NCBI GenBank assembly: GCA_964349945.1
Contig: CAYGIH010000001.1
Span: forward strand, 227,718-291,717
Direction of reading: 5' to 3'
DNA: 64,000 nt
DNA from: an uncultured Candidatus Saccharibacteria bacterium
Lineage (GTDB): Bacteria; Patescibacteriota; Minisyncoccia; Phycocordibacterales; Zambryskibacteraceae
Shown: positions 3,482-28,698 of the stretch, in pieces
Layout of the letters: the number at the start of each line of letters is the position of its first letter
Numbering within the stretch: position 1 is the stretch's first letter
Position numbers and translations under genes: made by a program
The notes under the pieces: model-generated
The model's database searches: none
What the model was told of the DNA's origin: nothing
Seen by the model: only the letters and a program-made list of their open reading frames with translations

Positions 3482-3502
3482 AGACTTAAAGAATATATTA
3501 AA

Positions 3503-3913: not shown

Positions 3914-3914
3914 A

Positions 3915-4259
3915 TTATTCTTTAATGGTTAAGTTAATCATCATCTTCTGTCGAAGTTTATTTTTGGGAAGCATTCCAAGTACTGCCATTCTCAAAACCT
4001 CCTTACCTCCTTTAGAAGCAATCATTTTCTCCATAGACTGGAGTTTGAGTCCTCCTGGGTAACCTGAATGAGTGGCGTATTTCTTGTCTATAAGTTTCTT
4101 TGAATTAAAACTCATTTTACCAGCATTAATTACCTCAATTTTTACTGGAGCAATAGTATTTTTAGAAAAATCAGTTCTGTTCTTACCCATAAGCAAGACA
4201 GCAAGCTCAGTAGCAAGTCGTCCGGGCTTTTTGTCTGTGGCGTCGATTGTGTGTTTCAT
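3915..4259 (-). CDS. rplM: 50S ribosomal protein L13
   Basis: 114 aa L13-like sequence directly upstream of rpsI (canonical rplM-rpsI pair). Confidence 0.85.
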   Translation of the reverse strand: MKHTIDATDKKPGRLATELAVLLMGKNRTDFSKNTIAPVKIEVINAGKMSFNSKKLIDKKYATHSGYPGGLKLQSMEKMIASKGGKEVLRMAVLGMLPKNKLRQKMMINLTIKE

Positions 4260-4260
4260 T

Positions 4261-4611
4261 TTATTTTACAAATTCTATAATTGCCATTTTTGCTCCATCG
4301 GATTGTCGAGCAATCATTTTGGTGATACGAGTATAACCACCATTTCTTTTCATATATTCAGGAGAAAGAATCGTAGCAATTCTCTTAGCTGCAATTTTAC
4401 CAACTCTAGATTCAAGTTCTCGTCTTGAAGCGAGAGTTTGCTTTTTTCCTAGAGTAATGAGCTTTTCTACAAAAGGGCGAATTTCCTTGGCTTTAGGCTC
4501 GGTGGTCTTAATTTTACCCTTAACCACAAGTGAGTAGGCCAAAGACTTTAAAAGAGCTTTTCTCTGGGACTGTTCTCTGCCGAATTTTCTGTTTACGTTA
4601 CCGTGTCGCAT
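4261..4611 (-). CDS. rplQ: 50S ribosomal protein L17
   Basis: 'MRHGNVNRKFGR' L17 N-terminus. Follows rpoA as in the alpha operon. Confidence 0.93.
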   Translation of the reverse strand: MRHGNVNRKFGREQSQRKALLKSLAYSLVVKGKIKTTEPKAKEIRPFVEKLITLGKKQTLASRRELESRVGKIAAKRIATILSPEYMKRNGGYTRITKMIARQSDGAKMAIIEFVK

Positions 4612-4625
4612 GGATGTATACCTTA

Positions 4626-5588
4626 CTAGTTTTTGAGCGTAATGCCAAATTCCCCTAGGGCCTTACGAATCTCATTAATACCCTTAGAGCCTAAACCGTC
4701 TATTTCTAATAGATCTTTCTCCTTTTTTCGTGCGAGTCCACCTACGGTTCTAATGTTTGCTTGTGCAAGTGCGTTTTGGGTTCTGGCAGACATATCCAGA
4801 GTTTCAACCCTGGTTTTTAGAACCTCAGGATCTACACTTGATGAAGAATGAGTGGTTGTTGGTGCTTCTGAATGCTCTTCGACAACAGGTGCCTCTTCTT
4901 TAAACCCGACAACAGCCTTCAGTTGATTAATCATTATCTCAATAGAACGAGTAAGGGCGTCTTTTGGAGAAATAGTACCATCAGTCTCAATAAATAATTT
5001 AAGCTTATTGAAGTCTGTCCTGTCGCCTATGCGCATGTTTTCAACCTCGTAGCTGGCTCGTCGAATAGGAGTAAAGATGCCATCTAATGAAATAGAGCCA
5101 ATATCAACTCGATTCTTTTCAAGAACTTCCTTGGCCACAAATCCAAGACCTTTTTCGGCGGTAATCTCCATTTCTAACTCTCCAGATTTACTTGTGACTG
5201 TAGCAATAATTTGATCAGGATTAAGAATTTCTACCTGACCGGGAACATCTAAATCTGCAGCGGTTACAACCTTCTCACCTTTTACTTTTAGGGTCATGGT
5301 CTGGGGTTCATCTGTTGAAAATCTCATCCTTACCTTCTTTAAGTTTAGAAGAATCGTTATAACATCTTCTTTTACACCATCCATTACTGAGAATTCATGA
5401 CTTATTCCCTTAATTTTCACTGATGTAATTGCTATACCAGGCAGAGAAGAGAGGATAATTCGTCTAAGACTATTACCTAAAGTATGACCATATCCTGGAT
5501 AAAGTCCTTCTATCTCATAAACACCACGCACCCCTTCTTCAGAGATGACTTTTGGTTTCGAAGGTAAAAGTATTGTGTAATCAGCCAT
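4626..5588 (-). CDS. rpoA: DNA-directed RNA polymerase alpha subunit
   Basis: 'GHTLGNSLRRILLSSLPG' alpha N-terminal-domain signature and a C-terminal alpha-CTD. In alpha-operon context. Confidence 0.95.
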   Translation of the reverse strand: MADYTILLPSKPKVISEEGVRGVYEIEGLYPGYGHTLGNSLRRIILSSLPGIAITSVKIKGISHEFSVMDGVKEDVITILLNLKKVRMRFSTDEPQTMTLKVKGEKVVTAADLDVPGQVEILNPDQIIATVTSKSGELEMEITAEKGLGFVAKEVLEKNRVDIGSISLDGIFTPIRRASYEVENMRIGDRTDFNKLKLFIETDGTISPKDALTRSIEIMINQLKAVVGFKEEAPVVEEHSEAPTTTHSSSSVDPEVLKTRVETLDMSARTQNALAQANIRTVGGLARKKEKDLLEIDGLGSKGINEIRKALGEFGITLKN

Positions 5589-5661
5589 TTGAATATAAAA
5601 AATATTAGGTTTAAATTATACGTTATTCTTGCGTTTGATGCAACTTTATGTCCGAACTAAC

Positions 5662-6267
5662 TTATCTACTATAATACTCGAGCACTGCCCCAAGATCGAA
5701 TACATGCTCCCCTGGTATATACACAGGCATGGCTACAATCTTGATTTCCTTTTTCTTTGGATCAAGTTCAATCCACGCGGGCGCGGCTTGAGTCTTGATT
5801 TTCTCTTCAATATCTGCAAACAGTGGGCTGTTCTTGCTTCCTTCTCTAATGCCCACCACGTCTCCAATGTCTAATTTGATTGAAGGAATAGTTACTCTTT
5901 TACCGTTTAGAGTGGTGTGTCCATGAGAGGCCATCTGCCTGCCTAATGCCCGAGTTTTTGCGAAGCCTCCCCTATAGAGAACATTGTCCAAACGAAGTTC
6001 AACAGAACGAAATAGTTTTTGAATTGGTTCTGAAGCACTCAAGGAAGCCTTTGAATACTTTGCGAATTGCTTCTCTGATATGCCATAACTGAATCTCGTT
6101 TTTTGTTTTTCTGTGAGCTGTTTACCGAATTCAGATTTTGGCTTCATTCGCCCCTTCATATTCTTCTCCTTTCTGGTTAGAGACAACGCGTACTTTGCAG
6201 TTTGAGTTTTCTCAAATATTGGGCTACCTAATCTCCTTGCAATTTTGTATTTTGGTCCGATTTTCAT
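5662..6267 (-). CDS. rpsD: 30S ribosomal protein S4
   Basis: 'KIGPKYKIARRLG' S4 N-terminus and an S4 RNA-binding domain. Alpha-operon context. Confidence 0.93.
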   Translation of the reverse strand: MKIGPKYKIARRLGSPIFEKTQTAKYALSLTRKEKNMKGRMKPKSEFGKQLTEKQKTRFSYGISEKQFAKYSKASLSASEPIQKLFRSVELRLDNVLYRGGFAKTRALGRQMASHGHTTLNGKRVTIPSIKLDIGDVVGIREGSKNSPLFADIEEKIKTQAAPAWIELDPKKKEIKIVAMPVYIPGEHVFDLGAVLEYYSR

Positions 6268-6272
6268 ATATT

Positions 6273-6719
6273 TTATGCTCTCCTTGGTCTAGGTGGTTTA
6301 GGACCATTATGTGGAACTGGGGTCATGTCCTGAATTGTTGTGATGTTTATACCTTTAGATATAAATCCTCTAATAGCAGATTCCCGACCAGAACCCACTC
6401 CTTTTACTACTACTTTTACTTCTTTTATACCAAACACAGAGGCTTTTTCTGCAAGTTTCTCTCCAATTTTTGCAGCTGCAAAGGGTGTTCCCTTCTTTGC
6501 TCCCTTAAATCCTATAGCTCCAGATGTAGACCAAGCAAGTGTGTTACCTTTGGGGTCAGTAAGTACTAGTTTAGTATTGTTATAAGTTGATTCTACACAG
6601 AGTATACCTGAATCAAAACGTTTCTTTGAACTAACTGAGGGTGTAGCAGCAACCGATGGGACTATTACATCCTTTTCTTTGTCTGTCTCTTCAGTTTTAA
6701 TTACAGCTCTTTTACCCAT
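6273..6719 (-). CDS. rpsK: 30S ribosomal protein S11 (with N-terminal extension)
   Basis: S11 core ('GSGRESAIRGF', 'ITDMTPVPHNGPKPPRPRR'). Confidence 0.92.
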   Translation of the reverse strand: MGKRAVIKTEETDKEKDVIVPSVAATPSVSSKKRFDSGILCVESTYNNTKLVLTDPKGNTLAWSTSGAIGFKGAKKGTPFAAAKIGEKLAEKASVFGIKEVKVVVKGVGSGRESAIRGFISKGINITTIQDMTPVPHNGPKPPRPRRA

Positions 6720-6737
6720 TTTAATATTTAAATATAA

Positions 6738-7118
6738 TTATTTCTTCTCTGCTATTTTACGACCAGTTCCCATTGTCTTTCGAACATTTCCTCTCCTGGT
6801 GCGAGAATTCGTTTTTGTTCGCTGTCCTCTCACAGGGAGACCTCTAGTATGTCTGACTCCTCTATAAGCCTTTATATCCTTTAATCTCTTTATATTAGAA
6901 GAAACCTCGCGCTTAAGATCTCCTTCGAGTGTCAATGTTTCTATAATGCCTCGAATCTTATTTTCATCCGCCAATTTAATGTCTTTTGGCCTCAAATCTC
7001 CAGACACCTTAGCTTCCTTAAGAATTGCTTGAGCTCTAGACCTTCCTATGCCAAATAAAACGGTCAAACCGATATCAATTCTTTTTTCTTCTGGAATGGT
7101 TATACCTAAAATTCTCAT
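6738..7118 (-). CDS. rpsM: 30S ribosomal protein S13
   Basis: '[18 protein letters not shown]' S13 N-terminus. Confidence 0.93.
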
Positions 7119-7119
7119 T

Positions 7120-7236
7120 TTATCCTTGTCTTTGTTTATGTCTTGCGTTAGCCTTGCAGATCACATAGACATAGCCTTTGCGCCTTACGATTTGGCATTT
7201 TGAGCATATCTTTTTGACTGAAGCTTTAACTTTCAT
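7120..7236 (-). CDS. rpmJ: 50S ribosomal protein L36 (38 aa; missed by the >=60 aa ORF track)
   Basis: Manual translation of the minus strand gives [38 protein letters not shown], the canonical L36 zinc-ribbon pattern. The ORF is 117 nt, sits between infA and rpsM as expected, and its stop lies 1 nt before the rpsM start. Confidence 0.88.
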
Positions 7237-7247
7237 AGTGAATAGCT

Positions 7248-7275
7248 ATTTTAGCTGACTTTGTAAATTTGTCAA
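7248..7275 (-). promoter_or_regulatory. Putative internal promoter (TTGACA-N16-TAAAAT) ending about 11 nt before the rpmJ ATG, giving a near-leaderless transcript
   Basis: On the minus strand TTGACA (+7270..7275) and TAAAAT (+7248..7253). The -10 is fused to an AGCTATT motif. No SD lies between the -10 and the ATG. Confidence 0.4.
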
Positions 7276-7300
7276 ACTGATGGATTTATAACTATGCTAA

Positions 7301-7516
7301 TTATAGTCGTTTTATAATTTTTGCCTTGCCTCCATATGGCTCTAACTGAAGAATAACCTTATCACCAACCAAAACACGTATTCGATGTAACCTCATTTTT
7401 CCTGACAAATATGCTAAGGTATCGACTTCTTCACCGTCAATTCTGACCTTAAACATAATATTTGGAAGGGCCTCCATCACAACCGCTGTTCTTTCTAAGT
7501 CTTTATTGTCTGACAT
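7301..7516 (-). CDS. infA: Translation initiation factor IF-1
   Basis: 71 aa S1-like OB fold ('VVMEALPNIMFKVRIDGEEV...'). Confidence 0.92.
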   Translation of the reverse strand: MSDNKDLERTAVVMEALPNIMFKVRIDGEEVDTLAYLSGKMRLHRIRVLVGDKVILQLEPYGGKAKIIKRL

Positions 7517-7540
7517 TAAATCATTATATACTAAAAACCT

Positions 7541-8878
7541 TTATTTTATAGAATTTTTTACAAGCTTGATGTCTTTAATGCTCAAAGGAAAAGTATTTTT
7601 CCAAAAAGGACGAATCTTGACATTAGCGTTATCAATACTTGGATATTTAGTGAGAATACTTGCCAAATTAGATTTTGATGCTCCTGCCAAATCCTTTTTG
7701 AGATTTTCTTCTGGTACCACGGCTACAGCTTGCGCATTTCCAGATAATTCAAAGCTGATTTGATCAGCTTTTATGAAATCAGTAGCTGTTTGCTTTTGAA
7801 GAGCAGCGCTTAATAAATCCAAGTCAATTATTTCTACGTTCCCAACAATTCCTTGATTAGCCTTTTTTGCAGTTAAATAGTTATTTAAATCGCTTCGTTT
7901 AAACATTATGCCGTAAAAATCAGCTTGTTCATTCAGTGTCACGGTGTCTGTTTTAGGAGATGTTTGCGGTAAATCATAATAGTTAATAACAACCAAATTG
8001 GGATAAAGTATAAAGTCGGCTGGTACCTGCGCTTTGGCTTGATTAAGTAGTTCTGACTTCAGTGATGTTTCCAGAGCAAGTTTTGCTTTAGCTAAATCCG
8101 ATTCACTGACCTGTTTTCTAAGACCAACATAACCACCAGACGTTGCAGTTTTGGAACGAGCATAAACATTTTCATATCTTGGGTCCCCTTTGAGTCCAGG
8201 GACTGTAAAATCAGTTAGTCCGATATTATATTCTGCCCCCGCTTGATCTGCATATAGGTTTACTTCAAGAGAACCAGGAGTTGTGCCTTTCTTTGCAGGA
8301 ATACTTATATCCGCCAAAATTCTAAAAACTTTATTTTCTAAGGATTGAAATCTAGTATTTCTAATTAGTTTGACTACAGAGCTAGTATTGTTATAAACAA
8401 TGGCTTTACCACTTGCTTTAATAGACACTTTTTCTTCACCACTGGCCTTTGCCTCGATTCCTTTTGTACCAGAAAGTTTAACAACACTAAACATCAAATC
8501 CTTTTCTCCTCCTGTCTTATATGCAGTAAAAGAATCTTTATTAAAAGTTAAATTAAATACCTTAGGACTATAAGTTAAAGTCGCACTTTTAAAAATAGAT
8601 AAAAGTGCGAACAATACTACCATCAAACCGATAATTGAAGCTATAACTAAAATCTTTCTTGAAGATTTGTTTTTAGATTTAAATACAAAATTAGAATTAT
8701 CAGTCAATTTCTTTTCCTTTGTCTCATCCGAAGTATTTATATGAATAGGAATTTTTACCTCATTTTTAACTCTTCCTTCTGGAATGGGGACATTCCTTAT
8801 AGATTTTTGATCACCTTTTTTATGAACAATTATGTCTTCAATATTTTTTGGCATATGTTTAATACAATTGTATATCAA
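7541..8878 (-). CDS. Hypothetical bitopic membrane protein (about 77 aa cytoplasmic N-terminus, one TM helix, about 340 aa extracytoplasmic domain)
   Basis: Single hydrophobic segment 'ILVIASIIGLMVVLFALLSIF'. No recognisable catalytic motif. Co-directional with, and 27 nt downstream of, the actin-fold gene. Confidence 0.5.
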   Translation of the reverse strand: MIYNCIKHMPKNIEDIIVHKKGDQKSIRNVPIPEGRVKNEVKIPIHINTSDETKEKKLTDNSNFVFKSKNKSSRKILVIASIIGLMVVLFALLSIFKSATLTYSPKVFNLTFNKDSFTAYKTGGEKDLMFSVVKLSGTKGIEAKASGEEKVSIKASGKAIVYNNTSSVVKLIRNTRFQSLENKVFRILADISIPAKKGTTPGSLEVNLYADQAGAEYNIGLTDFTVPGLKGDPRYENVYARSKTATSGGYVGLRKQVSESDLAKAKLALETSLKSELLNQAKAQVPADFILYPNLVVINYYDLPQTSPKTDTVTLNEQADFYGIMFKRSDLNNYLTAKKANQGIVGNVEIIDLDLLSAALQKQTATDFIKADQISFELSGNAQAVAVVPEENLKKDLAGASKSNLASILTKYPSIDNANVKIRPFWKNTFPLSIKDIKLVKNSIK

Positions 8879-8905
8879 ATTACCAACACTGCAATCTGTG
8901 GACGA

Positions 8906-10042
8906 CTATAAGGCAATGTTTGAGTATGCTGCCAAAATAGAAATTCTCTCATCAACTCTAACTTCGTCGATATAACCTGAAATTAATTTTACTAAATTAC
9001 TATTTTTCCCTACTTGTTCAACCTTATGATTATTGAATGTCCCAGATAAAAGTGTTTTTATTATTGATTCATTTTGTGCTGAACCTATTAGAAATATTTT
9101 ATAAGGGATAACTTGATCCTTAGGTATCTCGCTAGTCACTCTTTCCCATGAACTGGTCCATTCAGTTTCAATATCCCTGAACAATTCCTCAAATTTCCTT
9201 CTGGTATCACTATTAAGCGCTCCATCAGAAAATAGTGAAATATATGAATATGCGATCTCTAAAGGAACATTCATTTTCTTTTGTATGGCTCTGGCTATAT
9301 AGGCAGGTCCGAATGGTAAGGATATAGAAACCAGCGGATACGATTTTTTAACCAAAAGCAAATCAAGAGCTTCATTAGACATATTTACCAATAAAGCTGA
9401 ATGCATATTTTGAAAGGCTCTGGTAAAAACTTTCATAAATACAAACATGAAATTTTCAAATATCATATCGTTTTTAACTCCAATCAAATTAGTAATCTCA
9501 CGTTCTATATTATCTATTGAAGATTTTTGACCAGCGTACATCATAAATTGGATTTCTAAATCATTGGTCTGTTGTGATGCAAAAATATTTGATTCATAAC
9601 CATTTAAAGTAATGTTTGTAATCTTTGAACCAAAAATTTCACTTTTTTCTATATATCTCTTTTCCAAATCATTTTTAAAATTCTCTTCCTCCTCTTTCAA
9701 AATATTTGATATATGCTTTCTGTTTACTAAAAAAGGTTTTTCTGATTTCTGTACATAAGTTCTTAAACGCGATGTTATCCAGGGAGAAGAAAAAGAGACC
9801 AATACTGTATCTACACTAGAGTTTCCTATTTCTTGAATGATTCCTTTGATGTTTCTTAGAAGAGCCTTTTCTATAGAGTTCGAATCAGGTTTATCTTTTA
9901 AATAAAGAGGCACTCTTAAAGTATTAAGAACTAAGGGTATATTTCTTGGCTGTAATTTTATAAGGCCTGCACCCACTGATCCAGAGGATATATCTAATAC
10001 GAGAACAGTTTTAGCAGAACTGAATTTAGACCATAATTTCAT
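8906..10042 (-). CDS. Hypothetical actin-fold (ASKHA) ATPase-like protein, PilM/FtsA-like N-terminus, possibly degenerate
   Basis: N-terminal 'TVLVLDISSGSVGAGLIKL' resembles the phosphate-1 motif of PilM/FtsA/ParM. The second phosphate motif is not clearly conserved. Confidence 0.3.
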   Translation of the reverse strand: MKLWSKFSSAKTVLVLDISSGSVGAGLIKLQPRNIPLVLNTLRVPLYLKDKPDSNSIEKALLRNIKGIIQEIGNSSVDTVLVSFSSPWITSRLRTYVQKSEKPFLVNRKHISNILKEEEENFKNDLEKRYIEKSEIFGSKITNITLNGYESNIFASQQTNDLEIQFMMYAGQKSSIDNIEREITNLIGVKNDMIFENFMFVFMKVFTRAFQNMHSALLVNMSNEALDLLLVKKSYPLVSISLPFGPAYIARAIQKKMNVPLEIAYSYISLFSDGALNSDTRRKFEELFRDIETEWTSSWERVTSEIPKDQVIPYKIFLIGSAQNESIIKTLLSGTFNNHKVEQVGKNSNLVKLISGYIDEVRVDERISILAAYSNIAL

Positions 10043-10046
10043 TTCT

Positions 10047-11783
10047 TTATTCTAACACTGCTTTAATTCTTCTAACACCGGCTGATACTGCTTCTTCTTT
10101 AATAATTCTAAATCTACCTAAGTCTTTTGTGTTTTTTACATGAGGGCCACCACAAAATTCTTTTGACCAAGCTGACTCAAGTTTATCTCCAATAAAATAA
10201 ATTGAAATTTGATCTGGGTATTTTTGATCAAAAAAGTGTCTCGCTCCAGTTCTCATAGCTTCTTCTTTTGGAAGGATTATGTTTTGCATAGGTAAAGCTT
10301 CTTGAATCTTGTGGTTTACTATTTCTTCAACCTTTCCTTTTTCATCATCTGTTAACTTTCTAGGGAAGGAAAAGTCAAATCTAAGCCTTTCTGCTGTGAT
10401 GTTGCTACCTTTCTGTCCTACTTCATCTCCTAATACGTCATGTAAGGCTTGATGAAGTATGTGAGTGGCTGTGTGTAGTTTCGTATTCTCCTCACTTGCA
10501 TCAGATAAACCACCTTTAAACATTCCTGCAGAAGCTGTTCTCGAGGCATTTTGGTGCTCGGCAAATTTTTTATTAAATTCTTCTACATCTATTTTTTTTC
10601 CAGTTTCTTTAGCCATCTCTATACTTAACTCAAGCGGGAACCCATAGGAGGTAAACAAAGTAAATGCATCAACACCCTTTTCAAATTCCCTTAACCCATT
10701 CTCTAGGGTTTTTTCAAATTTTTCTTCTTCTTGCTGTAGATTAGAAAATATGAATTCCTTGTTGTTATTAAGTTCAGGATAAATGTTCTTGTATATCTGA
10801 ACGACAGCACTCGCAATCTCTCGAGTAAAATTATTTATACCTAACTGTTTGCCGTATCTAACTGCTCTTCTTACAAGTCTTCTTAGAACATAGCCTTGTC
10901 CAGTATTAGATGGAGCAATTCCCTTTTCATCTCCTAAAATAAATGTAGCAGTCTTAATATGGTCAGCTATAATTCTAAAAGGTCTTTCATTTCCTTTATA
11001 TTCTTTACCAGATATTTCCTCAATTTTCTTAATAATCGGCAGGAATATATCTGTTTTATAAACATCATCCAAACCATTTAAAGCAACCAGTGTTCTTTCT
11101 AGTCCTCCTCCAAAATCTATATTTTTTTGTTTAGCTTCCTCATAAATTCCCTCTTTATTTTTTATATACTGCATAAGAACATCGTTTCCTATTTCAACCC
11201 AGTTCTTGTTTTCTGGTTCAAATCCTTTCGGTACAGCTTCACTGCCGGTCCAATAAAACATTTCTGTATCTGGTCCACACGGGCCAACCTCTCCAGCTGG
11301 TCCCCACCAGTTATCTTTTTTAGGGAGAAAAGCAATTCTTTCTTTTGGGATCCCTAAGGAAACCCAAATATCAAATGATTCAATGTCTTTAGGAGCATCA
11401 TTATCACCAGCAAAACAACTGACAGCATATTTCTCCAAGGGAATTTTTAATACTTTAGAATGAAATTCAAGAGTCATTTCTATCGCGTCCTTTTTCCAAT
11501 AGTCTCCAAGTGACCAATTACCCATCATTTCAAAAAAAGTAAGGTGTGAGTTATCCCCTACTTCATCAATATCTCCAGTTCTAATACATTTTTGAATATT
11601 TACAAGGCGTTTGCCTGCAGGGTGCTTTTCTCCAAGCAAAAATGGCACAAGTGGGTGCATTCCGGCTGTGGTAAACAATACCGAAGGGTCATTTTCTGGT
11701 ATTAAGGATGCAGAAGGCAGTATTGTATGGCCTTTTTCTTTAAAGAAATTAAGATATTTATCACGAATGTCATTAGAATTCAT
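10047..11783 (-). CDS. alaS: Alanyl-tRNA synthetase, short form (catalytic and editing domains, no C-Ala domain)
   Basis: N-terminal 'FTTAGMHPLVPFLLG...IQKCIRTGDID...FFEMMGNWSLGDY' class-II AlaRS core. 'HTATHILHQALHDVLG' editing-domain motif. 578 aa. Confidence 0.9.
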   Translation of the reverse strand: MNSNDIRDKYLNFFKEKGHTILPSASLIPENDPSVLFTTAGMHPLVPFLLGEKHPAGKRLVNIQKCIRTGDIDEVGDNSHLTFFEMMGNWSLGDYWKKDAIEMTLEFHSKVLKIPLEKYAVSCFAGDNDAPKDIESFDIWVSLGIPKERIAFLPKKDNWWGPAGEVGPCGPDTEMFYWTGSEAVPKGFEPENKNWVEIGNDVLMQYIKNKEGIYEEAKQKNIDFGGGLERTLVALNGLDDVYKTDIFLPIIKKIEEISGKEYKGNERPFRIIADHIKTATFILGDEKGIAPSNTGQGYVLRRLVRRAVRYGKQLGINNFTREIASAVVQIYKNIYPELNNNKEFIFSNLQQEEEKFEKTLENGLREFEKGVDAFTLFTSYGFPLELSIEMAKETGKKIDVEEFNKKFAEHQNASRTASAGMFKGGLSDASEENTKLHTATHILHQALHDVLGDEVGQKGSNITAERLRFDFSFPRKLTDDEKGKVEEIVNHKIQEALPMQNIILPKEEAMRTGARHFFDQKYPDQISIYFIGDKLESAWSKEFCGGPHVKNTKDLGRFRIIKEEAVSAGVRRIKAVLE

Positions 11784-11798
11784 AGCTGAAATATAACA

Positions 11799-12395
11799 CT
11801 AAATGAGAGTTTTTAAAATTTTGAAATCCTCAAATAATATGCCTTTTGAATGTTGGTTATATATAGATACTGAAGGGTGATACAAGGTTACAATTTTTAT
11901 TTTTCCCCACGATACTTTTGCATCAAAAATTTTTCCATGAAGTTCTCCAATAGGTTTTATATCTTTGGTTAAACCATACTTATTCATAATATAAACCATT
12001 GCGAATCTACCTAAAGTAGCAATGACTTTGGGTTTAATAACTTCAATTTGTCTGTCGAGAAACGGAGTGTAAATCTCGATTTCTTCGGGTTTAGGATCTC
12101 TGTTTTTTGGAGGACGATCTTTTACAATACTTGTGATAAACACTGATTCTCTGGGGATTTTTACAGAAACAAGTAATTCATCAAGAAATTTCCCAGAACG
12201 ACCGATAAAGGGTTTTCCCGTTTTGGCCTCATTAGCACCAGGCGCCTCACCAACTAACATAATCGAAGCTTTACTGCTTCCCTCCCCAACCACAGGTAAA
12301 TAGTTATTCTTAATACGTTCATCAACCAAAAAAAATCCCCTAAGAGCCTCTACTTCGTTCGCAATTTCTTTTAATTTCTCTGTACGTTCGTCCAT
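11799..12395 (-). CDS. Uracil-DNA glycosylase superfamily protein (family 4/5-like)
   Basis: 'GEAPGANEAKTGKPFIGRSGKFLDELL' motif A and 'LYHPS' motif B. Confidence 0.8.
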   Translation of the reverse strand: MDERTEKLKEIANEVEALRGFFLVDERIKNNYLPVVGEGSSKASIMLVGEAPGANEAKTGKPFIGRSGKFLDELLVSVKIPRESVFITSIVKDRPPKNRDPKPEEIEIYTPFLDRQIEVIKPKVIATLGRFAMVYIMNKYGLTKDIKPIGELHGKIFDAKVSWGKIKIVTLYHPSVSIYNQHSKGILFEDFKILKTLI

Positions 12396-12862
12396 TAATT
12401 GACACTCTTTTTTAAACTATTACCAGTTATTTTGTGCTCAATAAACCACAACACCGTAAAGGCAAACAGAGTGGCGATAGTAACAAATAGTGCGATTGGC
12501 ATGTATCCATATCCTACAGCCGCTCCAATACCCGCAGTTATCCAAAGACCAGCAGCAGTGGTAATACCAGAAGTGTGATCCTGATTATTCGTGTGGTTAT
12601 GCAAAATAGCACCACCTCCAATAAACCCTATACCCATTATTAATCCTTGGAGTACATACATATGCCCAGGAGAACCTGGATCGACTACCGGTGTGACCAG
12701 TTTGCTTAAAATTATGAATAAACATGAACCCATGGCTACCAATCCATAAGTTCTCATACCAGCAGTCTTCCCGGCGAAAGTTCTTTCAAGTCCTAAGCAT
12801 GCACCTAGAAGCATTGCTATTATTAATTCAAAAAAGAAATTTATTATATCTGCGTTATACAT
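12395..12862 (-). CDS. MgtC/SapB family membrane protein
   Basis: 'LGACLGLERTFAGKTAGMRTYGLVAMGSCLF' MgtC signature. Multiple TM helices. Confidence 0.8.
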   Translation of the reverse strand: MYNADIINFFFELIIAMLLGACLGLERTFAGKTAGMRTYGLVAMGSCLFIILSKLVTPVVDPGSPGHMYVLQGLIMGIGFIGGGAILHNHTNNQDHTSGITTAAGLWITAGIGAAVGYGYMPIALFVTIATLFAFTVLWFIEHKITGNSLKKSVN

Positions 12863-12866
12863 TTGA

Positions 12867-13583
12867 TTATAAATTATTAGGAATTTCTAAAGAATCTAAA
12901 ATACCTGTTTCCTCAATCATATCCTGCAAATTTCCAGTTTCTGGATAATTCCATCCTATCATAGTTAAATTTTTACATTCTCCATAATGAATTGCTGTTG
13001 AAGAAAACTTTGTATTTGTGATTAACCAACCCTCATCCAAGACTCTTTTCTTTCCACCATAATTAAAAACTGTTCCGGCTTCTCGTATGTCATCAAAACG
13101 AGCTTTCACATAAAGTGCCACTTTTAAATCTGACTTGGTTCCAAGTTCATTATGATATTTTGCTTCACACATAATTAGTTTTTCCTTATTCCAAGCCACC
13201 ACATCTATTTCATGAGATACACAACTACCAAGGACTATTTGATCTGTGACAGTCTCATAACCCTTCGCTTCGAGTAGTCGTGCTACAAACTTTTCGAAAG
13301 GAAAACCAGATGGTCCAAGACTCATTACTATTCTTCTTATAGAGTATCTCCTCGCAACCTGTTTTTCGATTTTATGAAGTATGTCAAAAGCATATTTATA
13401 TATATCGCCAGTGCTCATATTATCCTTTAATTCACCTAAAATACGACTGACTACTTTCTCTATAGCACTGTCTGTGGCACCTGCTCTGAATAATGAGGAA
13501 CGCAACTTGTTCATATCAAACGGCTCCCTCTTGCCGTTTGCCTTTAATATAATGATTTCTCTTTCTTCGATGTTTTGATTCAT
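12867..13583 (-). CDS. ATP-cone domain fused to a restriction-endonuclease-like PD-(D/E)xK (Mrr-cat-like) domain
   Basis: N-terminal NrdR-like ATP-cone ('IILKANGKREPFDMNKLRSSLFRAG'). C-terminal 'HEIDVVAWNKEKLIMCEAKYH' D...ExK nuclease core. Confidence 0.6.
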   Translation of the reverse strand: MNQNIEEREIIILKANGKREPFDMNKLRSSLFRAGATDSAIEKVVSRILGELKDNMSTGDIYKYAFDILHKIEKQVARRYSIRRIVMSLGPSGFPFEKFVARLLEAKGYETVTDQIVLGSCVSHEIDVVAWNKEKLIMCEAKYHNELGTKSDLKVALYVKARFDDIREAGTVFNYGGKKRVLDEGWLITNTKFSSTAIHYGECKNLTMIGWNYPETGNLQDMIEETGILDSLEIPNNL

Positions 13584-13608
13584 TCAAAAATTATAGCTTA
13601 AAACTCAT

Positions 13609-14700
13609 TTAACTTATAATTCTATTAATTATCGCTCCACCAATACAATGTTCTCCATCGTAAAACACTATAGACTGACCTTCATTTACTCCCCTAGTTG
13701 GTGACAATAAATCAACAGTATTTGAGTCCATTTTAATAGATATCTTCTCTCCTCTATATCTTATTCGGGCACATAGATTTTTTATTTCCTTATTAACACT
13801 AAAATTAATATTTTTTAATTCTATTAGTCTTGGAGAAAAATTTAATACCTCTACATCGCTATTCGCAACTGTAACGGTGTTCTTCTTCATATCCTTTGAA
13901 ACAACATAATAAGCATTACTTGTTGGACTTTTTATTTCTATATCAAAACCGTGCCTTTCACCCTTGGTATAGTAAATAGCTCCTTTATGAGTACCGATTA
14001 TTTGACCTGATTTGTTTAAAACATTTCCAGGTTGAATGTTTGTGAAGTGTGGCAAAAAATCCTCTAAAGATACTTCTCCAAGGAAACATATACCTTGGCT
14101 ATCCTTTTTGTTTGAAACAGGTATTTCGTATTTTCTTGCGAGCTTCCTCACATATGCCTTATCCAAATCACCAATAGGGAAAATCACATGCTCCAAGTCA
14201 TCTTTTGTTAGTGTCCAAAGGAAATAACTTTGATCCTTCTCCTTATCTACTCCTTCAAATAGCTTTTGATTAATATTTCTTGCATAATGCCCTGTGGCTA
14301 TATAATCAGCTCCTAATTCTTTTGCCTTTCGCCAAAATGCTCCAAATTTAATTTCCCTATTACATAACACATCTGGATTTGGTATTCGACCATCTATATA
14401 CTCATTTATCATATAGTCAGCAACTTCCTTTTTATATTCTTTTTCAAAATCAAAAAAAATGAATGGAATATTCAACTTTGCAGCCACTCTCATTGCATCA
14501 CGCCTCTCATCCTTCCATGTGCAAGGTAAAAATTCAGGCGACCAAACCTTAATAAACACACCAGTGACGTCGAATCCCTGATCTTTCAGTAATGCTGCAG
14601 AAACAGCACTGTCTACACCACCAGACAGTCCAACGAAGACTTTTTTATTTATTGAGATATTTTGCTTTATTTGCTTTGTGCTCATCAAAAGTTCTTGCAT
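13609..14700 (-). CDS. mnmA: tRNA-specific 2-thiouridylase MnmA
   Basis: PP-loop 'VGLSGGVDSAVSAALL'. MnmA catalytic Cys region. 363 aa. Confidence 0.9.
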   Translation of the reverse strand: MQELLMSTKQIKQNISINKKVFVGLSGGVDSAVSAALLKDQGFDVTGVFIKVWSPEFLPCTWKDERRDAMRVAAKLNIPFIFFDFEKEYKKEVADYMINEYIDGRIPNPDVLCNREIKFGAFWRKAKELGADYIATGHYARNINQKLFEGVDKEKDQSYFLWTLTKDDLEHVIFPIGDLDKAYVRKLARKYEIPVSNKKDSQGICFLGEVSLEDFLPHFTNIQPGNVLNKSGQIIGTHKGAIYYTKGERHGFDIEIKSPTSNAYYVVSKDMKKNTVTVANSDVEVLNFSPRLIELKNINFSVNKEIKNLCARIRYRGEKISIKMDSNTVDLLSPTRGVNEGQSIVFYDGEHCIGGAIINRIIS

Positions 14701-15589
14701 AATGCATTATACCCATCTTATCAGTCAAGAAATAAAGGTAAGGAGAGTTTTTTGGGTACAAAGATGCTCTAATAGCATTCATACCGGGATTGTTTAGTGG
14801 ATTCTTTGGTAATCCAATTTCTTTGTATGTATTCATATCTGAATCAACTTGTAGAGGCATATTTATACTAAGTCTTTTCCAAAGAATTCCTGAAGCCATA
14901 GACATTTCTTCTGGTGTTTTTGCCTCTGCTTCTAGTATTGAAGCCATAATTATGATTTCACTTAATGTGCGCTTTGATTTAGATATGTCATCCAATAATG
15001 GAGCAATTTTTTTATTAAAATTATTTTCTAACAAATTTATAGTTGAGGTGGCTGTAGCACTCACCTCTATAAAATATGTATCAGGAAATAAATATCCTTC
15101 TCTCGCTGATTTTAAGAACAATTCATGATCAAATTTACTAAATTTTGGTGTAAATAACTCAGAGATATCTTGTTTTGTAAAACCCTCTGGAATTGTGATT
15201 CTAACTTCCTCTATGTTTCTCATTCCATGTAATATTCTCCACGCAAGTAGAACAGAGTTCTCTGGAGCCTTTAAATAATAGTCACCCGCTTTCATTTTAT
15301 TTTCCCCGCCCAAAAGAATTGCAAAGCTTCTAAAACCAATAGCCGAACGAACTATGTCCTTTTGCTTTAAATCAATTGATAGCGTGTATAAACCAGATCC
15401 TTCTTTTATATTGACGATGCTCTTTGATGGGAAATTAGTTGGAGGACTAATTAAAAGGATATAAAAAAATAATATTAAAAATAAAATTAAAAAAATAACA
15501 TTCTTTCTACTCTGAAAATTATACGTTTTAAGAAAACCATCTAACCAACTAAATAATTTTTCTGCACGAGATAAAAAGGGGTTCTCCAT
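14645..15589 (-). CDS. YceG/MltG-like endolytic transglycosylase paralogue (membrane-anchored)
   Basis: N-terminal TM helix. C-terminal 'GLPKNPLNNPGMNAIRASLYP...YLYF' YceG motif. The annotated 3' end overlaps the mnmA start by 56 nt. Confidence 0.7.
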   Translation of the reverse strand: MENPFLSRAEKLFSWLDGFLKTYNFQSRKNVIFLILFLILFFYILLISPPTNFPSKSIVNIKEGSGLYTLSIDLKQKDIVRSAIGFRSFAILLGGENKMKAGDYYLKAPENSVLLAWRILHGMRNIEEVRITIPEGFTKQDISELFTPKFSKFDHELFLKSAREGYLFPDTYFIEVSATATSTINLLENNFNKKIAPLLDDISKSKRTLSEIIIMASILEAEAKTPEEMSMASGILWKRLSINMPLQVDSDMNTYKEIGLPKNPLNNPGMNAIRASLYPKNSPYLYFLTDKMGIMHYARTFDEHKANKAKYLNK

Positions 15590-15594
15590 AGAAG

Positions 15595-16800
15595 CTACAT
15601 TGGTAAATTCGAAGGAGCTTCTCCCTTTTTAGAAGGTAAACGAGCAAGGGTAGGTGTAGCTGCCACTGTAGAACTAGGGAAATGCCATATAGTGGCCAAC
15701 TCCTCAGATGTCAGGATAAATGGTTTGCCATGGAAATGTTTGAATGGAGAGTTGAAAAATGATCGCCTCTTATAAGCTTCAAGTAGATTAATCTCATTTT
15801 TTCTCTTTCGGATACCCTTAAAATCCTGCCATGGATAATCGTAGCTTGCGTTAAAACTGGGTTTGAATCCATTCAAGTTATTAGAACCAAATTGTTTAAA
15901 ACTCCCTAAGAGACCCCCAATATTGTTTTTATTTAAAACATCCTTTTCTGCTATGTACGCAGCCCTAATCATTGTGTCAAAAGCTGGCTTAGCCAATGTT
16001 CTCTCTATTGCCTTAATCGTGTCATTTTGTGATTCTGATAAATTCAAATAACTAGTCTTCTTTTCATCAGCTGTCTTAAGTGTCGCTTTCTTTAATATTT
16101 CATTAATTTCTTTTTTAACTCCATCTGACCAATCAGGTTTAAGAGAAAGTCGACCAAATTTTATTCCTTCTTTTGTGTGTCCTTGCACTAAAATTTGAAT
16201 CCAAGCTTGCTCTCCTTTTTTTAATGAACCAAGAAATTCAAGTGTGGGTACTATTGGATCATTTTTATATTCCTCTTTTGGATCTTTATCCAGACCATAC
16301 TCTACATAAGTTTTTATCGGATATGCATCTGCCTTTGTGAGGGCAAACTGACCAATCCATCCAAACGAAATCTTCTCTGGATTATAATGAACATCTAAAG
16401 TGTAATCTTTAGCTTCGTGTACCTCTACATTTGGAAATTGAGCATAAAGTTGTGCTTCAATAATATTTTTAAATTTTGGGGAGGTCCAAATATAAAAATG
16501 AACATGCCCTCCTATGGAAGCTATTTCAAGCGAAAACCAAGATCTGACTCTGCCTTTAAAATATACATCTATTAAGCTCCCCACACTCGTTTGATGAAGA
16601 GTATTCATAAATATTTCCATTGATAACGGAGACTTGAGAATCTCATTCGGTATTTTAATCTCAAGAAGAGTACTGCCCTGTTCTTTTATATACTCACGTC
16701 TCTTATAATTCATCCAAGTATCAAACCAAAACAATAGAATAAACACTGGCACCCAAATAGGAGCGTAGTATTCTAATAGAGAAACAGCAGTCATTAACAT
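15595..16800 (-). CDS. Hypothetical protein with N-terminal TM helix (401 aa)
   Basis: Hydrophobic N-terminus 'VSLLEYYAPIWVPVFILLFWF'. No recognised catalytic motif. Conserved-looking C-terminal 'ILTSEELATIWHFPS'. Confidence 0.5.
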   Translation of the reverse strand: MLMTAVSLLEYYAPIWVPVFILLFWFDTWMNYKRREYIKEQGSTLLEIKIPNEILKSPLSMEIFMNTLHQTSVGSLIDVYFKGRVRSWFSLEIASIGGHVHFYIWTSPKFKNIIEAQLYAQFPNVEVHEAKDYTLDVHYNPEKISFGWIGQFALTKADAYPIKTYVEYGLDKDPKEEYKNDPIVPTLEFLGSLKKGEQAWIQILVQGHTKEGIKFGRLSLKPDWSDGVKKEINEILKKATLKTADEKKTSYLNLSESQNDTIKAIERTLAKPAFDTMIRAAYIAEKDVLNKNNIGGLLGSFKQFGSNNLNGFKPSFNASYDYPWQDFKGIRKRKNEINLLEAYKRRSFFNSPFKHFHGKPFILTSEELATIWHFPSSTVAATPTLARLPSKKGEAPSNLPM

Positions 16801-16834: not shown

Positions 16835-17917
16835 CTATGCAACTGAATATTTTCCTTCTTTGTCTTTCTTGAAGAATTTGCTGTTCTGAAGATTTACCAT
16901 AATAGTATTTTCTTTCACATACCTCTCTTTGAGAACTTTTTCAATAATTTTATCCTTACTGAGTGGTCCATCTTTCTCCAAAATCTTTTTAATAACATCC
17001 TTGACTACTCCGGACATATAACCCCATTCTGCAAGAGCGTATAAACCTCGTCCCACCAAAACAAATCTTGGATCCTTTATTAATTCATTATGTGTTGTAG
17101 CTACATGTGCTTTTTTGTCAAAATATTGAGAAATGGCCTTTGCTACTTCTTTAAAGTGTATAGGTGACCCATGCTTTCTTATAACCAAGAAAGCATAATC
17201 CCTCATACCTTTGGCATTTACATTTGGGGAAGTAGTTTTACCCCATTCACCTAGAGGGTTTTTGCCAATTTTATGAGAAATAGATAACCATCTCTTTATA
17301 ACTTCTTCATTTTTATATTTCTCATTTATATCCTTAACTTCATCAAGAAAATCATTAATAAGGTCACTCTCAACGACCAATTCATCATCTGAAAGCTTTG
17401 TGTATAATTTCCTTATTGCATTCTGAATTTTCTTTGCGAGCTCTGGGTCGACGTGCCATCTATGTTTAAATTCTTCGTCTTCTTTCTCCTTTTTAAATTC
17501 ATCTCCGATTACCAATAGAAAATTTATGTGATTTTGTGTAACTTGATCCTTAGATAAATGCTTCAATAAATCTTTCTCTGCCACAATACCCCCTAAGCTT
17601 AGAATCAATTCTTTTAATTCAGTGAATGCTAGTTGAGAATCCTTATATGACTTTGACTTGCGAATAGCTGCCAATGAGTGATTTTCAATCTGACGAACTC
17701 TTTCTCTAGTAATCCCATACTTCTTTCCAATAGAATCTAGAGTCATTTTTGTTGCCTTGGTGCCGAGTCCATATCTTGATTCTATGACATCTCGACCTCG
17801 TTTAGTGAGCCCAGAAAGAAGTGACTTGGTCACTTGTTTTGGCTTGAAGCTTAATGTTATTTTTTCACTCATATGTTTATAAAGTTTATTTGTATCACTT
17901 GACGCTATATCTGTCAA
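16835..17917 (-). CDS. Sigma-70 region-4-like HTH protein with C-terminal HARE-HTH-like domain (putative RNAP-associated regulator)
   Basis: 'DVIESRYGLGTKATKMTLDSIGKKYGITRERVRQIENHSLAAIRKS' closely matches the sigma region 4.2 pattern. The C-terminal 'FVLVGRGLYALAEWGY' resembles the HARE-HTH motif of the RNAP delta subunit. Confidence 0.5.
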   Translation of the reverse strand: MTDIASSDTNKLYKHMSEKITLSFKPKQVTKSLLSGLTKRGRDVIESRYGLGTKATKMTLDSIGKKYGITRERVRQIENHSLAAIRKSKSYKDSQLAFTELKELILSLGGIVAEKDLLKHLSKDQVTQNHINFLLVIGDEFKKEKEDEEFKHRWHVDPELAKKIQNAIRKLYTKLSDDELVVESDLINDFLDEVKDINEKYKNEEVIKRWLSISHKIGKNPLGEWGKTTSPNVNAKGMRDYAFLVIRKHGSPIHFKEVAKAISQYFDKKAHVATTHNELIKDPRFVLVGRGLYALAEWGYMSGVVKDVIKKILEKDGPLSKDKIIEKVLKERYVKENTIMVNLQNSKFFKKDKEGKYSVA

Positions 17918-28644: not shown

Positions 28645-28698
28645 CCGAGTACTATACCATTTAGCAAACAAAAAGCAATACAATCAAGCCTAAATATG

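Follow-up and report, generated by a model that had tools for sequence, protein, structure and literature searches.

Introduction

The ATP-cone has so far been understood only as the switch of ribonucleotide reductase and of the repressor NrdR. What, then, would an ATP-cone do at the N-terminus of a nuclease? The question is raised by a single gene in the 64,000-nucleotide stretch of DNA analyzed here (the window), which comes from a bacterium of the Patescibacteria (candidate phyla radiation, CPR), and for this gene the initial annotation proposed a fusion of an ATP-cone to a PD-(D/E)xK nuclease core, gated by nucleotide pools and plausibly acting as a defense or stress effector. Here, we examine the domains, family, genomic neighborhoods and possible roles of the encoded protein.

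Results

An ATP-cone fused to a nuclease domain

The gene and its features are listed in Table 1. The gene is present in a single copy within the window and an identical protein (P0001) is found in public assemblies. Both domains of the proposed fusion exceeded their curated Pfam cut-offs, which are 25.8 bits for the ATP-cone (PF03477; residues 11–84, 37.5 bits, E = 3.5e-9) and 21 bits for Mrr_cat (PF04471; residues 93–208, 26.6 bits, E = 7e-6). The reported placement of the gene between those for an MgtC-family protein and MnmA, both on the same strand, is likewise correct. Scans around the gene for promoters, terminators and Rfam families returned nothing specific.

Table 1. Features of the ATP-cone nuclease locus (positions in the window; residues numbered in the encoded protein)
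Feature	Position	Strand	Details
ATP-cone + AF1548-type PD-(D/E)xK nuclease gene, short form	12867..13583	−	Complete ORF, 238 aa (ORF listing, Pfam)
ATP-cone, residues 11–84	13332..13553	−	Beta-hairpin lid (strands 11–13, 19–21), then four helices
Linker and first nuclease helix, G90-P91-x-G93-F94-x-F96-E97	13293..13322	−	Invariant in 70 close homologues
PD-(D/E)xK nuclease domain, AF1548 type, residues 93–229	12897..13307	−	
Catalytic core	13158..13205	−	D127 13203–13205; E140 13164–13166; K142 13158–13160
MgtC-family membrane protein	12395..12862	−	Starts 4 nt past the nuclease stop; PF02308 E = 1.6e-32
mnmA (tRNA 2-thiouridylase)	13609..14700	−	Ends 25 nt before the start of the nuclease gene; tRNA_Me_trans E = 3e-72
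UDG-superfamily uracil-DNA glycosylase	11799..12395	−	PF03167 E = 9e-30

The N-terminal domain displays the characteristic ATP-cone fold, a beta-hairpin lid followed by a four-helix bundle. Its residues I12, K14, E20, P21, F22, K26 and L27 align with V51, K53, E59, P60, F61, K65 and L66 of Escherichia coli NrdR, for which the adenine-nucleotide contacts have been described (bioRxiv 10.1101/2025.03.28.645925). Of the cone residues, K14, G17, E20 and K26 do not vary among family members. The NrdR-type contact residues are thus conserved at the sequence level, and adenine-nucleotide binding itself is predicted. The sensor fold and the principal contacts (the lid Lys and Glu, the Pro-Phe pair and the Lys-Leu pair of helix 1) are common to the cones of NrdR and ribonucleotide reductase, and by analogy with both the window protein would be expected to respond through nucleotide-dependent oligomerization. 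What differs is the output domain, a nuclease in place of the Zn-ribbon DNA binder of NrdR or of a reductase; correspondingly, the NrdR model TIGR00244 matched the cone only (20.1 bits versus a cut-off of 124.65). We also considered whether the invariant Y80 of the last cone helix corresponds to Tyr131, the gatekeeper of NrdR, but the profile alignment does not match the two residues.

The nuclease half is, by sequence, a clear homologue of the uncharacterized AF1548 from Archaeoglobus fulgidus (PDB 1Y88). After allowing for an offset of 13 in the SEQRES numbering, D127, E140 and K142 align with D38, E51 and K53 of AF1548, which have been predicted as catalytic (PMC1874628, PMC1821046). Because AF1548 is a structural-genomics protein of unknown function, the match yields a fold and an active site but no biology. 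The catalytic acidic and lysine residues of the initial annotation were present on proper alignment and, together with the helix-1 acidic residue E97, are invariant in 70 close and 32 diverse family members; H124, E125 and H144 of the catalytic core are likewise invariant, and the G, P, G, F and E of the linker motif stay invariant even when members from Archaea, Bacteroidota and Chlamydiota are compared with those from Patescibacteria. In a fold search, the nearest structures after AF1548 included Can2, Card1, Cdn1 and NucC, together with MspJI and AspBHI. The Mrr_N winged helix gave no match at E ≤ 1; the N-terminus is occupied by the ATP-cone instead.

These residues bear on the idea that the protein is a non-catalytic regulator, in which the nuclease fold serves as a DNA-binding module with its occupancy set by ATP or dATP. 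NrdR itself demonstrates that an ATP-cone can govern DNA binding through oligomerization. However, a catalytic constellation that is invariant across phyla (E97, D127, E140 and K142) is unexpected for an inactivated nuclease and Pfam detects neither a Zn-ribbon nor an HTH domain in the window protein; we consider a purely regulatory role exceedingly improbable.

A short form of a large, catalogued family

The combination of ATP-cone and nuclease is already catalogued and is not new: its members appear in databases as 'ATP cone domain-containing protein' or 'restriction endonuclease', the latter probably a misleading annotation. Thousands of homologues occur in Patescibacteria, Bacteroidota, Chlamydiota and Archaea, with 3678 matches to the window protein as query and 6551 to a Criblamydia homologue; the family forms 1029 clusters at 50% identity, and relatives are present in 480 species genomes. 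The window protein is 54–86% identical to members from Parcubacteria and 40–44% identical to those from Bacteroidota and Chlamydiota. When a fragment of AF1548 was used as query, the 17 matches included archaeal forms lacking the cone and some that carry it.

The usual form of the family comprises an ATP-cone, Mrr_cat and an AF1548-like_C domain (PF22357) in approximately 280 residues, and the window protein is full-length for the first two. AF1548 differs in the opposite sense, lacking the ATP-cone but carrying AF1548-like_C, with the nuclease core of the same type in both. No PF22357 match was obtained for the window protein, whereas the long members of the family do match. As the protein stops at residue 238 without PF22357, and the MgtC gene begins only 4 nt further on, it represents a variant of truncated architecture; such short forms are found at 12 of 77 Parcubacteria loci. 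AF1548-like_C is probably a non-specific nucleic-acid-binding module, so the window protein may bind its substrate more weakly or need a partner. The initial annotation had mentioned neither the membership in a large family related to 1Y88 nor the loss of its usual C-terminal domain. In the literature searched, we found no functional study of the fusion, of AF1548/1Y88 or of the NCBI product name; a Pseudomonas metalloproteome preprint that was considered as a lead proved irrelevant to the family.

A conserved housekeeping cluster in Parcubacteria

In 76 Parcubacteria loci and the window, the gene lies in a co-directional order of leuS, sigma-r4/HARE-HTH, DUF8128, mltG, mnmA, the nuclease, a variable slot, UDG and alaS. 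The cluster containing mnmA precedes the nuclease directly in 51 of 77 loci, and UDG follows within three genes in 52. The variable slot holds MgtC, a Cas4-like PD-(D/E)xK nuclease, a PolB-exo-like 3'–5' exonuclease or a YfbR-like HD 5'-deoxynucleotidase. MgtC is the next gene in 22 of the 77 loci and MgtC-family genes are also found near family members in Bacteroidota and Bathyarchaeia; the two proteins are possibly linked in function.

Median identities to the proteins of the window were 60% for the nuclease, 53% for MnmA, 49% for AlaRS and 40% for MltG, and the nuclease was more conserved than these neighbors in 94–100% of paired loci, although choosing the loci by similarity of the nuclease biases this comparison. 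The identity of the nuclease tracks that of its neighbors (Spearman rho ~0.75). Within this housekeeping cluster of the Parcubacteria, the gene is strongly conserved and appears to be passed on vertically.

Partners in other phyla

Outside the CPR, we analyzed 39 loci, not phylogenetically independent of one another, in which 3 kb or more of sequence flanks the nuclease gene in each direction. A beta-CASP/RMMBL RNase lay within 6 kb of it in 26 of these; TP/AMP-phosphorylase-family genes were found in 10, PRPP-synthetase-family genes in nine and Usp genes in 16. In 25 of the 40 loci that have a beta-CASP gene downstream on the same strand, this gene starts no more than 30 nt from the nuclease stop codon or overlaps the nuclease gene; the beta-CASP product has its best NCBIfam matches among Cas14-type and aCPSF1-type RNases. 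The nuclease, beta-CASP, phosphorylase and PRPP-synthetase genes form a four-gene cassette on plasmids of Criblamydia and Pontibacter, as well as in two further loci (L171 and L173). Bathyarchaeia encode a cone-less AF1548-like nuclease downstream of genes of the IF-2B family, which includes ribose-1,5-bisphosphate isomerase, and of the AMP/thymidine-phosphorylase family. A comparable TP/PRPP-synthetase/MBL operon of Bradyrhizobium diazoefficiens (bll3117–bll3115) is induced by microoxia in a FixK2-dependent manner (PMC6515984, PMC9104804); as published, it does not include an ATP-cone nuclease.

None of these partners (beta-CASP, phosphorylase, PRPP-synthetase, AAA_28, Usp or HSP20) was detected in the window or in 80 Parcubacteria loci (tblastn, E < 0.01; the positive control worked). 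Any functional context that they suggest for the window protein is therefore transferred across ~40–44% identity.

The two sets of neighbors bear differently on a role in DNA repair or recombination, in which a structure-specific nuclease (similar to a Holliday-junction resolvase, NucS or a flap endonuclease) would be coupled by its cone to the dNTP and ATP supply for repair synthesis. The Parcubacteria neighborhood, with its UDG, Cas4-like nuclease and exonuclease, fits this role equally well, but synteny inside one bacterial class is a weak sign of functional linkage. The non-CPR partners, an RNA-type beta-CASP enzyme with RMMBL, the phosphorylase, the PRPP-synthetase and stress genes, are not repair genes, and the Hjc model (PF01870) scored the window protein at 12.4 bits, below its cut-off of 21.1. 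A repair nuclease is consequently an unlikely, if credible, identity for the protein.

The same partners raise the alternative of an endonuclease dedicated to the processing or degradation of RNA (tRNA, rRNA or mRNA), in which the cone would link decay to energy charge. The RNA-specificity domain RMMBL of the beta-CASP partner and its Cas14- and aCPSF1-type matches are consistent with such a role, as are the tRNA-related mnmA, alaS and leuS genes of the window and the fold relatives Can2 and Card1, which cut RNA as well as DNA. On the other hand, Mrr-like PD-(D/E)xK enzymes mostly act on DNA, the 5'-deoxynucleotidase and DNA exonuclease neighbors in the CPR point to DNA, and the usual C-terminal domain of the family appears to resemble DNA-binding helical modules. 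We judge an exclusive role on RNA to be quite improbable. It overlaps with the role in nucleic-acid turnover proposed below, from which it differs mainly in substrate.

No support for a defense function

The defense part of the initial annotation corresponds to an anti-phage or abortive-infection nuclease, either a type IV restriction enzyme similar to Mrr or an effector that responds when infection disturbs the ATP/dATP pools, conceptually similar to GajA of Gabija. Nucleotide-sensing defense nucleases do exist, the catalytic domain belongs to Mrr_cat, the nearest folds include both ligand-gated defense nucleases (Can2, Card1, Cdn1 and NucC) and modification-dependent restriction enzymes (MspJI and AspBHI), and two homologues are carried on plasmids.

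The searches directed at this function gave little in return. No match was found in 50,697 phage records or in 2.9 million IMG/VR viral contigs; comparison with BFVD viral folds was negative or returned generic similarity only. PADLOC-DB v2 gave sub-threshold matches that reflect the nuclease fold only (PDC-S02, 19.8 bits, and CARF_PDDEXK, 16.2 bits, were the best), and PADLOC models matched the partner genes only through generic MBL similarity. Among the eight neighbors scanned there was neither a methyltransferase, as originally noted, nor any other defense gene, and the local composition is unremarkable, with a GC content like that of the flanks. Mrr-type type IV enzymes share the catalytic family, but the window protein has no N-terminal domain that reads modified DNA, and its gene has no defense context and is vertically conserved. 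Can2, Card1 and Cdn1 sense cyclic oligoadenylate through CARF domains, in contrast to the predicted sensing of ATP/dATP by the cone, and the window gene has no CRISPR association. Moreover, the plasmid copies lie in metabolic cassettes. The stable synteny, vertical-looking inheritance and conservation above that of aminoacyl-tRNA synthetases (in loci chosen by similarity of the nuclease) run counter to the patchy occurrence and rapid evolution that are typical for defense genes. Defense was accordingly rejected as the leading reading and is very unlikely to be the function. Of the two effector roles first suggested, the stress component fares better, being in line with the beta-CASP RNase, nucleotide-catabolic and stress genes that accompany the family in other phyla.

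Discussion

A proposed nucleotide-gated nuclease in nucleic-acid turnover

The explanation that we favor, and regard as evenly poised between right and wrong, is an adenine-nucleotide-gated nuclease of the AF1548 family that initiates nucleic-acid turnover or salvage, as a housekeeping enzyme or in response to starvation. Gating by nucleotide pools, as first suggested, would be the most parsimonious reading. From its sequence, we infer a metal-dependent PD-(D/E)xK endonuclease whose activity would be switched by adenine nucleotides at the N-terminal ATP-cone. If the cone works as it does in ribonucleotide reductase and NrdR, the binding of ATP versus dATP, or the loss of nucleotide, would alter the oligomeric state and so turn the nuclease on or off. 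The neighborhoods in other phyla suggest that the enzyme may initiate the breakdown of RNA and/or DNA by endonucleolytic cleavage, producing 5'-phosphate ends, and that exonucleases (in Bacteroidota and Chlamydiota, the translationally coupled beta-CASP RNase) would reduce the pieces to mononucleotides, to be salvaged or catabolized via AMP/thymidine-phosphorylase-family and PRPP-synthetase-family enzymes. The cone would thereby tie self-digestion to adenylate/dATP status, following the same logic by which ribonucleotide reductase links dNTP synthesis to dATP. Patescibacteria are generally held to depend on scavenged nucleotides, and in their cells the digestion of nucleic acids could be a constitutive core function.

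More tentatively, and with doubt outweighing confidence, we propose a widespread, as yet undescribed self-digestion pathway, with the nuclease as its regulated first step. Once adenine nucleotides report energy limitation or hypoxia, the nuclease and the beta-CASP exonuclease would convert cellular or imported RNA and DNA to mononucleotides, which archaeal-type NMP/thymidine-phosphorylase-family and PRPP-synthetase-family enzymes would direct to pentose phosphates and salvage. Such a pathway would be common to Bacteroidota, Chlamydiota, some Proteobacteria (in a version without the nuclease), Bathyarchaeia and Parcubacteria, where the nuclease would be a core gene.

Implications

Thousands of proteins belong to the family, and in the Parcubacteria genomes sampled its gene evolves slowly and is syntenic. 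If the self-digestion proposal is correct, it would add a third biological use of the ATP-cone to those in ribonucleotide reductase and NrdR. Should the cone indeed gate breakdown by ATP/dATP, 1Y88, an orphan structure for twenty years, would gain a function, and the logic of dNTP-pool homeostasis would be extended from synthesis to degradation and salvage, with relevance both to ultra-small symbionts that live on scavenged nucleotides and to the survival of starvation and hypoxia by free-living bacteria.

Domain architecture and active sites

The initial annotation described the target gene as a fusion of an ATP-cone to a restriction-endonuclease-like PD-(D/E)xK domain, and Pfam bears this out, with both domains scoring above their curated cut-offs: the ATP-cone spans residues 11–84 (E = 3.5e-9; 37.5 bits versus a cut-off of 25.8) and the Mrr_cat restriction-endonuclease domain residues 93–208 (E = 7e-6; 26.6 bits versus 21). 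NCBIfam gave a sub-threshold NrdR match across the cone, YraN-like matches across the nuclease and nothing else. The GC content of the gene (0.35) is the same as that of its flanks, and no second copy is present within the 64-kb window. The AlphaFold2 model, for which 70 homologues were used, was predicted with confidence (mean pLDDT 86.5, pTM 0.76) and comprises a β-hairpin and four helices followed by an α/β nuclease core. In fold searches, the N-terminal half resembles the ATP-cones found in NrdR and in ribonucleotide reductases of classes I and III, while the nuclease half matches, after AF1548, restriction enzymes of the modification-dependent and type IIS kinds, NucS, and the CARF-linked Can2, Card1 and Cdn1. 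AF1548, an uncharacterized structural-genomics protein, shares the nuclease core of the target; it contains an AF1548-like_C domain (PF22357) but no cone, whereas the target contains a cone but no AF1548-like_C.

The strings IDVVA and EAK quoted in the initial annotation were located in the target (see table). D127, E140 and K142 align with the predicted catalytic residues D38/E51/K53 of AF1548 (PMC1821046, PMC1874628) once the numbering of the deposited sequence, which is offset by 13 residues, is taken into account. Together with E97 (first helix), H124, E125 and H144, they are invariant in 70 close homologues, and D, E, K, E97 and H-E show no variation either when 32 sequences from Patescibacteria, Bacteroidota, Chlamydiota and Archaea are aligned. 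The cone residues I12, K14, E20, P21, F22, K26 and L27 correspond in the alignment to E. coli NrdR V51, K53, E59, P60, F61, K65 and L66, residues that cover or line the adenine nucleotide (structural study, bioRxiv 10.1101/2025.03.28.645925); no counterpart of the NrdR gatekeeper Tyr131 was established in the target. Judged from these alignments, both the PD-(D/E)xK active site and the adenine-nucleotide pocket are intact, and that the protein is a non-catalytic regulator is scarcely credible. On all features examined, its sequence places it in the ATP-cone and Mrr_cat families. Neither outcome that the initial annotation named as refuting it, an ATP-cone hit short of significance or missing catalytic D/E/K residues, was observed.

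Coordinates of the target gene, its active-site codons and associated features
Feature	Locus	Position	Strand	Description
Target ORF	window	12867–13583	(−)	238 codons, ATG start
D127 codon GAT	window	13203–13205	(−)	within HEIDVVAW
E140 codon GAA	window	13164–13166	(−)	within CEAKYH
K142 codon AAA	window	13158–13160	(−)	within CEAKYH
MgtC-family gene	window	12395–12862	(−)	4 nt downstream of target; at +1 in 22/77 Parcubacteria loci
Unannotated ORF	window	8906–10042		378 aa, after alaS; fast-diverging, median identity 23%
alaS	window	10047–11783	(−)	578 aa; tRNA-synt_2c + tRNA_SAD
mnmA, as called	window	13609–14700		overlaps mltG end by 56 nt
mltG	window	14645–15589	(−)	
DUF8128 gene	window	15595–16800	(−)	401 aa; syntenic in about 60 Parcubacteria loci
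Sigma70-r4/HARE-HTH gene	window	16835–17917	(−)	360 aa; median identity 70% (57 loci)
Two tRNA-Ala genes	window	28698–28984		divergent; GGC and TGC anticodons, 140 nt apart
Plasmid cassette with flanking genes	L081 (Criblamydia plasmid)	3855–13880		cassette headed by family gene
MgtC-DUF4010	L084 (Bacteroidota)	3304–4572		gene found in 10/84 loci
Phosphorylase–nuclease block	L168–L170 (Bathyarchaeia)	3190–6621		cone-less nuclease
MgtC-family gene	L168 (Bathyarchaeia)	10601–11026		~4 kb downstream of cone-less nuclease
Split family gene	L173	5605–6456		
Split family gene	L174	129–980		

Family distribution and the question of defense

A search with the target protein returned 3678 proteins at E ≤ 1e-3, the best 120 of which are all at least 61% identical to it; several of these 120 are named 'ATP cone domain-containing protein', 'ATPase' or 'restriction endonuclease'. 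Exhaustive searching of 1.84 billion cluster representatives gave 1029 clusters at E ≤ 1e-3, of which 378 reach E ≤ 1e-30; both domains are covered in nearly all of them. Confirmed relatives come from 480 species-representative genomes, the best 80 belonging without exception to Patescibacteria (Zambryski-, Taylor- and Nomurabacteria, Paceibacterota, Minisyncoccia). Plasmid homologues with 42% identity were detected by tblastn in Criblamydia sequanensis and Pontibacter actiniarum, and the Criblamydia protein as query yielded 6551 further matches, including Chitinophaga, Psychroserpens, Saprospiraceae and Chlamydiia. Most family members are ~280 aa long with AF1548-like_C as a third domain; short forms without it, such as the target, occur in 12 of 77 Parcubacteria loci, and among archaeal relatives some have the cone and others lack it. 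This common architecture already appears in public annotation, for example under the JGI name 'restriction endonuclease/ATP cone domain-containing protein/AF1548-like protein'; the target is therefore a short variant of a known, functionally uncharacterized kind.

Two further arrangements were observed. In two independent assemblies (L173, L174), the family gene is divided between two ORFs 57 nt apart, one of 112 aa holding the ATP-cone and one of 151 aa holding the nuclease and AF1548-like_C domains, and β-CASP, ATC_hydrolase, TP-family and PRPP-synthetase genes follow; the split is natural or else stems from a frameshift that both assemblies share. Two contigs of one MAG (CAZOIN01; loci L054 and L063) carry distinct family copies, each ~55% identical to the target protein, reflecting either paralogy or a mixed bin.

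No tblastn match to the target was found in 50,697 phage records, no relative is encoded among 2.9 million viral contigs, and a viral structure library contained single-domain look-alikes only. PADLOC gave weak matches to the nuclease fold only, the target contains no modified-DNA reader domain, and none of the eight neighbors scanned is a methyltransferase. The defense role considered plausible at the outset is thus not borne out, and we regard a defense nuclease as highly improbable. In separate comparisons, the target was ruled out as an Mrr-type restriction enzyme, NrdR, Hjc or a PADLOC system component.

A core syntenic gene in Parcubacteria

The position of the target between MgtC and mnmA was confirmed: it starts 25 nt after mnmA, also on the minus strand, and a UDG-superfamily glycosylase and then alaS follow MgtC on the same strand. 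ORFs called in 80 related loci and the window, clustered by BLASTP, revealed a recurrent co-directional order of leuS, a sigma-r4/HARE-HTH protein, DUF8128, mltG, mnmA, target, a variable slot, UDG and alaS. The slot holds MgtC, a Cas4-like PD-(D/E)xK nuclease (at +1 in 11 loci), a PolB-exo-like 3′–5′ exonuclease (DNA_pol_B_exo2) or a YfbR-like HD 5′-deoxynucleotidase, or is empty. The UDG, Cas4-like and exonuclease neighbors favor a nuclease of repair or recombination, a role that we nevertheless consider unlikely.

Median identities to the window proteins are 60% for the target, a figure inflated by the picking of loci by target similarity, 59% for LeuRS, 53% for MnmA, 49% for AlaRS and 40% for MltG. 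The target exceeds MnmA, AlaRS and MltG in 94–100% of paired loci, and its identity tracks that of its neighbors (Spearman rho about 0.75). Despite the selection bias, this sequence pattern indicates vertical inheritance under strong constraint; the target is a core syntenic gene in Parcubacteria.

The sigma-r4/HARE-HTH protein, with an N-terminal Sigma70 region-4 and a C-terminal HARE-HTH, has an unusual sigma-like architecture and is the most conserved of the block. The DUF8128 protein had no Pfam match here, its name coming from precomputed annotation, and AlaRS has nothing past the SAD domain. Translation of mnmA probably begins at a codon further downstream. Slot occupants also include a PaaX_M-domain protein; the Cas4-like nuclease is Cys-rich (PDDEXK_1), and L041, L032 and L064 exemplify the slot (clusters 16, 24 and 37).

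A β-CASP cassette outside CPR

On the Criblamydia and Pontibacter plasmids, an annotated four-gene block comprises the ATP-cone protein, an MBL-fold hydrolase, a thymidine-phosphorylase-family protein and ribose-phosphate pyrophosphokinase, in that order; the Criblamydia block has phosphoketolase, glycogen phosphorylase and acetate kinase on its flanks. In a non-CPR set of 80 metagenomic loci and six from plasmids or genome records, the family ORF was found in 84 of 86. A β-CASP gene lies downstream on the same strand in 40/84 (in 61/84, the sequence extends 1.5 kb or more downstream), starting within 30 nt of the family gene's stop, or overlapping it, in 25 of the 40. The domains of the partner are Lactamase_B, Beta-Casp and RMMBL; in NCBIfam it comes closest to Cas14-type and aCPSF1-type RNases, with both scores below cut-off. 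Thirty-nine loci have 3 kb or more on each side; in these, genes within 6 kb of the family gene include β-CASP RNase (26 loci), universal stress proteins (16), P-type ATPase (14), the archaeal-type thymidine/AMP-phosphorylase family (PRK04350/TIGR02645; 10), the PRK07199-type PRPP-synthetase family (9), MgtC-DUF4010 (7), HSP20 (5) and an AAA_28/dNK-like kinase (5).

Single loci fit this picture: β-CASP follows the family gene in a Chlamydiia MAG (L085/L086) and AAA_28 does so in Chitinophaga, the Psychroserpens order is PFK, MgtC-DUF4010, 2-hydroxyacid dehydrogenase, Usp, an ion-channel gene and the family gene, and the cassette in L171 and L173 comes with DeoC or PRPP synthetase. In Bathyarchaeia, an IF-2B-family gene (the family of ribose-1,5-bisphosphate isomerase) and an AMP/thymidine-phosphorylase-family gene precede a cone-less AF1548-like nuclease on the same strand; a Phosphodiest-family gene adjoins the nuclease on the opposite strand, and RNase HII lies upstream. 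None of the β-CASP, phosphorylase, PRPP-synthetase, AAA_28, Usp and HSP20 partners was found by tblastn (E < 0.01) in the window or the Parcubacteria loci. The comparison of neighborhoods across homologues, proposed in the initial annotation, has revealed housekeeping synteny in Parcubacteria and a β-CASP cassette elsewhere: outside CPR, the nuclease is operonic with an RNA-type β-CASP protein and nucleotide-catabolic enzymes inside stress islands. A dedicated RNA-decay enzyme is a less probable reading than a repair nuclease.

Published work links the partner genes of the cassette to low oxygen. The Bradyrhizobium diazoefficiens operon bll3117-bll3116-bll3115 encodes a TP-family protein, a PRPP synthetase and an MBL hydrolase; it is upregulated in microoxia at the RNA and protein levels, carries a FixK2 box and shows up to a 30-fold drop in a fixK2 mutant (PMC6515984, PMC9104804), in which the FixK2 targets phosphoketolase and acetate kinase are likewise down (PMC9104804). 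As these two enzymes flank the Criblamydia cassette and are Bradyrhizobium FixK2 targets, the plasmid cassette and its flanks suggest a transferable low-oxygen fermentation island. Separately, an MgtC-family gene lies near the nuclease family in three distant lineages, Parcubacteria, Bacteroidota and Bathyarchaeia. MgtC is tied to ATP homeostasis in Salmonella.

Proposed mechanism and significance

We propose, at about an even chance of being right, a cone-gated nuclease that couples nucleic-acid breakdown to adenylate/dATP status. Binding of ATP and/or dATP to the cone would shift the oligomeric state and so switch the nuclease, as in RNR and NrdR; the predicted mode is most like that of ligand-gated PD-(D/E)xK effectors (CARF nucleases), with the ATP-cone replacing their sensor. 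The nuclease would cut endonucleolytically to leave 5′-phosphate ends, from which exonucleases and phosphorylases could yield bases and pentose phosphates, or salvageable nucleotides. The switch could operate in either direction, and the substrate could be RNA and/or DNA.

The ATP-cone/nuclease fusion itself will not surprise a specialist. What appears to be previously undescribed is that it behaves almost as a housekeeping gene in CPR and shows conserved coupling to both a β-CASP RNase and a low-oxygen-induced nucleotide-catabolic cassette. Together these features lead to a concrete hypothesis that can be tested, namely that the ATP-cone has a third role.
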